Position numbers and translations under genes: made by a program. This document shows, one piece after another, positions 25,421 through 27,068 of a stretch of DNA of 64,000 nt. Origin of the DNA: Mobula hypostoma (Eukaryota); assembly GCF_963921235.1 (NCBI RefSeq), contig NC_086097.1, forward strand, positions 91,700,001 through 91,764,000, given 5' to 3'. Position 1 is the first letter of the stretch. Every line of letters begins with the position of its first letter. The notes below the pieces were generated by a model. It worked only from the letters and a program-made list of their open reading frames with translations, ran no database searches and was not told the DNA's origin.

Positions 25421-27068
25421 CAGTTGAAGTCAGAAGTTTACATACACCTTAGCCAAATAAATTCAGTTTTTCACAATTCTTGACATTAAGCCCAGAAAAC
25501 ATTCCCTGTCTGAGGTCAGTTAGGATCACTACCCTGTAATTTATTTTAAGAATGTGAAATGTCGGAATAATAGTAGAGAGAATGATTTATTTCAGCTTTT
25601 ATTTCTTTCATCACTTTCCCAGTGGGTCAGAAGTTTACATACACTTTGTTAGTATTTGGTAGCATTGCCTTTAAATTGTTTAACTTGGGTCAAACGTTTT
25701 GGATAGCCTTCCACAAGCTTCTCACAGTAAGTTGCTGGAATTTTGTTCCATTCCTCCAGATGCAACTGGTGTAACCGAGTCAGGTTTGTAGGCCTCCTTG
25801 ATCGCACATGCCCTTTCAGTTCTGCCCACAAATCTTCTATCGGATTGTGGTCAGAAAATGATGTCGAGTCTGGTTCATCCTTGGGAGCAATTTCCAAACG
25901 ACTGAAGGTACCACATTCATCTGTACAAACAATAATACACAAGCTTAAACACCATGGGACCACGCAGTTGTCATAGCGCTCAGGAAGGAGACGCATTCTG
26001 TCTCCTACAGATGAACGTACTTTGGCATAAAAAGTGCATATCAATCCCAGAAAAACAGCAAAGGATCTTGTGAAGATGCTGGAAGAAACAGGTAGGCAAG
26101 TATCTATATCCACAGTAAAACAAGTCCTATATCGACATAACCTAAAAGGCTGCTCAGCAAGGAAGAAGCCACTGCTGCAAAACTGCCATAAAAAGAAGCC
26201 AGACTTCAGTTTGCAAGTGCACATGGGGACAAAGATCTTACTTTTTGGAGAAATGTCCTCTGGTCTGATGAAACAAAAATTGAACTATTTGGCCATAATG
26301 ACCATCATTACGTTTGGAGGAAAAAGGGTGAGGCTTGCAAGCCGAAGAACACCATCCCAACCGTGAAGCATGGGGGTGGTAGCATCATGTTGTGGGGGTG
26401 CTTTGATGCAGAACGGACTGGTGCACTTCACAAAATAGATGGCATCATGAGGAAGGAAAATTATGTGGATATATTGAAGCAACATCTCAAGACATCAGCC
26501 AGGAAGTTAAAGCTCGGTCACAAATGGGTCTTCCAAATGGACAATGAACCCAAGCATACTTCCAAAGTTGTGGCAAAATTGCTTAAGGACAACAAAGTCA
26601 AGGTATTGGAGTGGCCATCACAAAGCCCTGACTTCAAACTGATAGAAAATTTGTGGGCAGAACTGAAAAAGTGTGTGCGAGCAAGGAGGCCTACAAACCT
26701 GACTCAGTTACACCAGTTCCAGCTGGAGGAATGGAACAAAATTCCAGCAACTTACTGTGAGAAGCTTGTGGAAGGCTACCCAAAACGTTTGACCCAAGTT
26801 AAACAATTTAAAGGCAATGCTACCAAATACTAACAAAGTGTATGTAAACTTCTGACCCACTGGGAAAGTGATGAAAGAAATAAAAGCTGAAATAAATCAT
26901 TCTCTCTACTATTATTCTGACATTTCACACTCTTAAAATAAAGTACAGGGTAGTGATCCTAACTGACCAAAGACAGGGAATGTTTTCTCAGATAAAATGC
27001 CAGGAATTGTTAAAAACTGAGTTTAAATGTATTTGGCTAAGGTGTATGTAAACTTCTGACTTCAACGG
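25421..27068 (+). mobile_element. Sleeping Beauty-family Tc1 transposon, rearranged (two right IR/DR arms), inactive
   Basis: TA|CAGTTGAAGTCAGAAGTTTACATACACC...|TA. Transposase from SGSSLGAISKRLKVP to ...[10 protein letters not shown] (25867-26833) with stops and a frameshift. 25421-25854 is an inverted copy of 26628-27068. Confidence 0.95.

Follow-up and report, generated by a model that had tools for sequence, protein, structure and literature searches.

Sleeping Beauty (SB) moves by cut and paste, with binding at four direct repeats and insertion at TA, and Izsvak et al. are said to have observed in 2002 that two right ends work poorly. According to the available parts of two later papers, the left repeat of SB carries an enhancer and is the preferred end, the HDR being a motif of the left inverted repeat (IR) (PMC5224488), and SB performs best with two copies of the preferred end (PMC4505599). 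The available part of Jia et al. 2022 (PMC9777934) lists the SB clade from 107 ray-finned species and one mollusc, and from no Chondrichthyes. For a different Tc1 family, ZB-like-Calmil, the same part counts at least 100 full copies in a single genome, that of the one chondrichthyan. Transfer of Tc1 elements between fishes is already well established, and the surprise of a further case is moderate. The accessible text of Zhang et al. 2020 counts 975 transfers, 93.7% of them with ray-finned fishes and Tc1/Mariner the commonest; in the accessible part of its supplement Callorhinchus and Rhincodon are present and Leucoraja was not found. Group 1 Tc1 elements have a patchy distribution in the excerpt of Kuraku et al. 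2012 (PMC3516227). A superfamily-level count in the available part of PMC12361510 gives TcMar shares of 2.30% in rays, 3.28% in skates and 0.14% in sharks; in its main text, to the same extent, the word "horizontal" is absent and SB appears only in a general list of subtypes. The excerpt of a preprint on manta and devil rays (10.64898/2026.10.27.761883) mentions neither Tc1 nor TcMar, and PMC12400950 contains no cartilaginous-fish terms. No SB-clade transfer into a ray is reported in the available parts of PMC3516227, PMC12361510, PMC6362248 and 10.64898/2026.10.27.761883, and no report of an SB-clade element in a cartilaginous fish was found in the open-access literature.

The window (the whole stretch of DNA analysed, 64,000 nucleotides) contains a dead, rearranged Tc1 element of the SB clade in elasmobranch DNA. 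The element occupies 25421-27068, exactly the span given in a preceding sequence-only reading, and is flanked by TA target-site duplications at 25419-25420 and 27069-27070. Of the two termini quoted in that reading, the left agrees and the right carries one substitution, at 27067. This change of the second-last base of the right end is a single substitution and does not exceed background decay; repeat-tip damage in related elements has been termed "self-inflicted wounds" in the available part of PMC5224488. TA duplication together with terminal inverted repeats is a Tc1/DD34E feature, and each end carries two direct repeats (families D1 and D2), as in the IR/DR subgroup. In the left arm the outer direct repeat, a predicted transposase site, is at 25429-25450 and the inner one, of right-IR type, at 25626-25647 (both plus strand, family D1). 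The right IR/DR (26834-27068, plus strand) has its inner repeat at 26835-26856 and its outer repeat at 27039-27060. The spacing is 197 and 204 nt.

A dead transposase with HTH_SB, HTH_Tnp_Tc3_2 and DDE_3 pieces lies at 25866-26833 (plus strand). Its catalytic domain is open over 213 aa (26192-26833, plus strand), contains the transposase motifs quoted in the earlier reading, and is 88-89% identical to the proteins of SB vectors and of L001, a metagenome locus used here as a stand-in for salmonid-type SB. The DDE domain has the D..D(34)E arrangement (DDE_3, E 2.7e-17). When the 213-aa frame was searched against 177,635 PDB sequences, the single match was SB100X (5cr4, E 2.4e-123). The protein search gave 5920 matches, the top three of which are 88-89% identical, and the clusters of the top matches contain the pT2 vector transposase and salmonid proteins. 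Among the 120 transposase matches listed, the minority with species names are all teleost, with no chondrichthyan. Coding identity above 80% and grouping with SB100X-type transposases place the element in the SB clade as described by Jia et al. 2022. The intact 340-aa ORF of an autonomous element is absent: the start codon is missing, SB codons 56 and 74 are now stops, and the frame is shifted by 2 inserted nt at 26194-26195. The element has no coding function today. The catalytic residues of the SB transposase are, by the numbering we assume, D153, D244 and E279; none is among the 38 amino acid differences from L001, and the catalytic positions are unchanged against it.

The left end has been rearranged, a feature missed in the earlier reading. 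The left arm (25421-25854, minus strand) duplicates, in inverted orientation, the right end of the same element, comprising the right IR/DR and the last ~68 transposase codons. It takes the place of 260 nt at the start of canonical SB, which hold the native left IR/DR and the beginning of the 5' UTR. In alignment, 25417-25854 repeats 26628-27072 in inverted orientation (445 nt, 92%). A 3-nt microhomology joins the arm to a 14-nt remnant of the 5' UTR (25852-25865, plus strand; L001 1873-1886), after which a 172-nt deletion has taken away the start codon and roughly 19 initial codons. Matches between the window and the native left repeat of SB are confined to the direct-repeat motifs common to both ends; the distinct left IR with its HDR enhancer that marks canonical SB is absent. 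The description of the element as "near-canonical" SB therefore holds for its sequence and fails for its layout, which has two right ends and has lost the native left repeat and the start codon.

Comparison of the two arms separates changes made before and after their duplication. The arms differ from each other at 29/434 sites (K2P 0.070). A three-way alignment of both arms with L001 has 428 ungapped columns, of which 379 do not vary. In 21 columns the two arms agree with each other and differ from L001, 15 columns are changed in the left arm alone and 12 in the right arm alone, and 1 is of another kind; a 7-nt insertion is present in both arms. It follows that the lineage was already ~5% diverged from salmonid-type SB when the arm was duplicated, and that each arm has since gained ~3% (about 3-3.5%). 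No age is given from the arm divergence because a pedigree rate and phylogenetic rates lead to ages that differ by an order of magnitude. If transcribed, the arms are predicted to pair over 417 bases at -909 kcal/mol, versus 170 pairs at -514 for L001, both values being computed without a shuffle control. The available part of Jia et al. 2022 (PMC9777934) lists SB terminal inverted repeats of up to 415 bp, so a comparable long-repeat form may exist in a teleost. The inverted-arm motifs had no match in the first 400 nt of each row of the Jia et al. supplement.

L001 is an intact 1639-nt TA-flanked element. It encodes a protein with 98.8% identity to P0121, the transposase of the pT2 vector, and its first 400 coding bases agree by eye with the SB-Huchuc row in the available part of the Jia supplement. 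In this locus the intact SB adjoins opposite-strand sequence (1-1610) resembling another Tc1 element, which has a 65-nt inverted repeat at 44-108 and 1546-1610. The window copy shows 92.6% DNA identity to L001 over 1205 nt. In the coding part, 65 substitutions were counted in ~965 aligned nt, 15 of them CpG-type. These CpG-type changes, the TA duplication and the arm changes (shared against L001 or private to one arm) point to residence of the element in the host. Nei-Gojobori counting over 319 codons gave a dS of 0.094 (bootstrap 0.055-0.139) and a dN of 0.060, and 9 of 121 fourfold sites were changed. The dead transposase keeps 281 of the 319 aligned residues (88%). About 18 differences from salmonid SB in the last 156 aa had been counted in the earlier reading, and exactly 18 were counted against L001. 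The non-coding right end, which had also been thought closely similar, matches L001 at 212 of 228 ungapped columns of the right IR/DR, apart from the 7-nt insertion. A Ks below 0.5 on at least 100 codons is one criterion for transfer in the available text of Zhang et al. 2020, and another asks that Ks plus 2 SD fall under the 0.5% quantile of core-gene Ks for the clade pair. The present value, 0.094 on 319 codons, lies below the 0.5 limit, although it comes from Nei-Gojobori counting and not from Li's method.

The host was identified from the DNA around the element. The second coding exon of PACS2 (8613-8700, minus strand; aa 40-69 of the Mobula protein) served as host marker. Of the 120 proteins listed, 25 match it at 100%, and every one of these belongs to a shark or a ray. 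Identity is 93% in the chimaera and mostly 90-93% in tetrapods, and the single named teleost departs at 3/29 residues, so that the exon sets elasmobranchs apart from other vertebrates by just 2-3 of 29 residues. No further PACS2 exons were found in the window. From this single exon, the element likely lies in intron 1 of PACS2 in antisense orientation. Two candidate exons, 23227-23343 and 29993-30085, were rejected, having neither a Pfam match nor a PACS2 match. The second marker is a CR1 LINE reverse transcriptase frame (42254-43621, plus strand), whose best named match is Mobula hypostoma (93%), followed by Leucoraja (80-87%), Hypanus and Chiloscyllium (76%) and named tetrapods (<60%); no teleost name occurs among the 120 matches listed. 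CR1s are reported absent from Elopocephalai in the available part of PMC13343379, and the window contains several. Both markers point to an elasmobranch, which agrees with the earlier view that the host is cartilaginous and not a teleost. That the host is an elasmobranch is well supported, and it is likely a mobulid ray.

Other repeats were observed in the window. CR1 LINE copies are located at 1-2340, 13729-17700, 42164-43624 and 48800-50450, and the copy at 13729 has an esterase-type ORF1 (Lipase_GDSL_2) with endonuclease and reverse transcriptase pieces. A second, older IR/DR-type Tc1 element (9777-11328, plus strand) has ~200-nt terminal repeats and TA flanks. It shows 53% amino acid identity to SB over the catalytic part and 65-67% DNA identity to the nearest fetched loci; it belongs to another family and may stem from a separate transfer. 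A PNMA-like gag with a protease-like frame (11559-12792, plus strand) is probably a Ty3/Gypsy remnant. A 251-nt self-inverted repeat (35753-36003, 89%) has sequence in common with two other places, 5789-6017 and 44929-45146. Longer frames run on the minus strand at 5778-7471, and 6571-7023 had no Pfam hit. The repeat and the frames resemble Penelope remnants.

Searches of other sequence sets showed where related elements occur. No match to the element was found in the plasmid and phage sets, and none was confirmed in viral contigs. Prokaryote genome contigs gave 2 distant matches (58-60%), which are likely contaminants. Among 53 metagenome loci, three (L001, L003 and L023) were SB-type at 86-89%; none of the three starts with the inverted arm, and all open with the native left end. 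The public run search returned 24 rows from 9 organisms with element word shares of 0.31-0.47. No row reached half of the element words, so none is an independent read set of the host itself. In four of the 24 runs, from four organisms, between 73,000 and 187,000 contigs per run fell on the element and carried L001-type alleles together with the native 5' end, and depth was zero across 13500-17483, where the neighbouring CR1 lies; such contigs show presence, not absence. The strong contrast between element depth and zero CR1 depth suggested that the element is common to genomes without the host's repeats. Among the 15 of 540 joints listed, none was read as equal to the window's own junction.

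The tree was built from 30 chosen protein rows, with partial and redundant rows excluded, the window copy contributing 213 decayed residues. The copy falls inside the SB clade (support 100/99), as sister to a 14-row salmonid/vector group with weak support (80/79) and apart from a Sparus-Prochilodus-Coilia group. Amino acid identity is 84-89% to most salmonid SB rows versus 77-85% to the other teleost SB subclade. The copy lies outside the salmonid Tss1 subfamily and retains residues of the other subclade, although this is weakly supported. A salmonid donor was rejected on the sister position and the residue pattern, and appears unlikely. A remora donor (SB-Echnau) was not supported either, since by eye it belongs to the other subclade. 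A signature at codons 96-97, a two-site hint, occurs only in SB-Hetnil and SB-Panhyp within the first 400 nt of the Jia supplement rows. The tree placement speaks for transfer from a teleost to a ray, with a donor outside the salmonids. SB-Hetnil and SB-Panhyp presumably stand for Heterotis and Pangasianodon, both freshwater fishes, and these are unlikely as direct donors for a marine ray.

Our results suggested that the family very probably came to the ray lineage horizontally, out of the bony-fish pool and along a teleost route. Horizontal transfer by whatever route is more probable still. The earlier reading had already favoured transfer over vertical descent across the chondrichthyan-teleost split, and the dS of 0.094, the 212 of 228 non-coding matches and the elasmobranch host support it. 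Some other route, in which rays and teleosts were each supplied by a third lineage, for instance an invertebrate parasite, or a ray donated to the salmonid-side subclade, is improbable. It would suit a copy that branches outside the salmonid group with residues of the other subclade and whose codon 96-97 signature leads to two unlikely direct donors, and one mollusc does have an SB-clade element in the available part of Jia et al. 2022. Against this, the ray copy has teleost elements to either side of it in the tree, and 107 of the 108 SB-clade hosts listed in that part are ray-finned fishes. This alternative also differs from the teleost route in the route only and leaves the transfer itself unchanged.

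Vertical descent would place the family in the jawed-vertebrate ancestor and ascribe the similarity to slow cartilaginous-fish evolution and a conserved transposase. A dN/dS of 0.64 against L001 does indicate some constraint, but protein selection cannot account for both a dS of 0.094 and 93% non-coding identity. Slow shark evolution, moreover, cannot erase synonymous change on the teleost branch. The shark pedigree mutation rate is very low (7e-10 per generation, PMC10587355), which lends vertical descent some weight; it also means that the ray branch adds little divergence, so the argument for transfer leans on the teleost branch. The split is dated at 473 My in the available tree file of Zhang et al. 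2020, and DNA transposons evolve neutrally inside hosts according to the available text of the same work. PACS2, a working host protein, is identical at only 489 of 648 residues (75%; one protein pair) between Mobula and one teleost, less than the 88% kept by the dead transposase, which supports transfer. The copy is nearer to salmonid SB than to the other teleost subclade, it nests among teleost elements, and the SB clade was not found in Chondrichthyes in the available part of Jia et al. 2022 (PMC9777934). Vertical descent is therefore highly improbable. An artefact, be it salmonid or SB-vector DNA in a ray scaffold or a misassembled inverted arm, is equally so: other genomes and vectors are rich in SB and assemblers can be misled by inverted repeats, but clean TA duplications bound the element at both junctions inside ray-type DNA, the 29 differences mean that neither arm is an assembly copy of the other, and both arms carry 21 changes and the 7-nt insertion relative to L001, whereas the four runs have L001-type letters at the listed diagnostic places.

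In the preferred teleost-to-ray transfer, an active element of the SB clade, from a lineage sister to the salmonid subfamily, would have reached the ray germline from an unsampled teleost, or through a shared parasite or prey, and would then have multiplied by cut-and-paste into TA sites. The two-right-end copy could have formed during gap repair after excision. Synthesis would start in the outer direct repeat, which is common to both ends, switch to the right repeat, copy ~435 nt inward, and return to the 5' UTR at the 3-nt microhomology while skipping 172 nt. The product would be a non-autonomous element with two right ends, followed by neutral decay of about 3-3.5% per arm. We infer that such template switching is the simplest origin of this copy, although microhomologies of 2-3 nt can be due to chance. 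The two-right-end form either arose at the present site or was moved there by the transposase of another copy. An origin in place would need no transposition of this form, and the same junction at other sites, if found, would mean that it moved in trans without the enhancer. A wider proposal, that the SB clade invaded mobulid/myliobatiform rays and spread partly as a symmetric non-autonomous two-right-end subfamily, is tentative and rather doubtful.

With this copy, the best-known vertebrate transposon tool has a natural range that reaches beyond bony fishes to an elasmobranch, in a group barely sampled by large transfer screens. The Tc1/mariner excess reported for rays gains one concrete source, and residues replaced in salmonid SB but retained in the ray lineage throw light on how the clade evolved. 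Should the two-right-end form prove to be a subfamily of many copies, it would put the left-repeat requirement to a natural test. Its spread in rays would make them the first known elasmobranch host of the SB clade, and would mean that an SB-type element multiplies in a vertebrate germline without the left-repeat enhancer used by laboratory SB. Each such copy would form a ~420-bp RNA hairpin, which could feed silencing of its own family.

Among described systems, salmonid Tss1/SB (PMC9777934) is the closest. The ray copy has in common with it a DD34E transposase (88-89% in the catalytic frame), a right IR/DR at 93%, two direct repeats per end, the TA duplication and a length of ~1.65 kb. It differs in its elasmobranch host, in the inverted right end that replaces the left IR and the start codon, and in its lineage-specific changes. 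ZB-like-Calmil of the chimaera, as described in the available part of Jia et al. 2022, is likewise a teleost-type Tc1 family in a cartilaginous fish, but it belongs to another clade (SB and ZB groups have 52-54% coding identity) and its host is a holocephalan, not a ray. The Group 1 Tc1 transfers between teleosts and lampreys, in the excerpt of Kuraku et al. 2012 (PMC3516227), resemble the present case in spanning a deep vertebrate split and leaving dead copies. Unlike the window copy, Group 1 elements were not amplified from cartilaginous fish by PCR according to that excerpt. The TcMar excess in batoids, in the available part of PMC12361510, forms a background that fits invasions of batoids by such elements.
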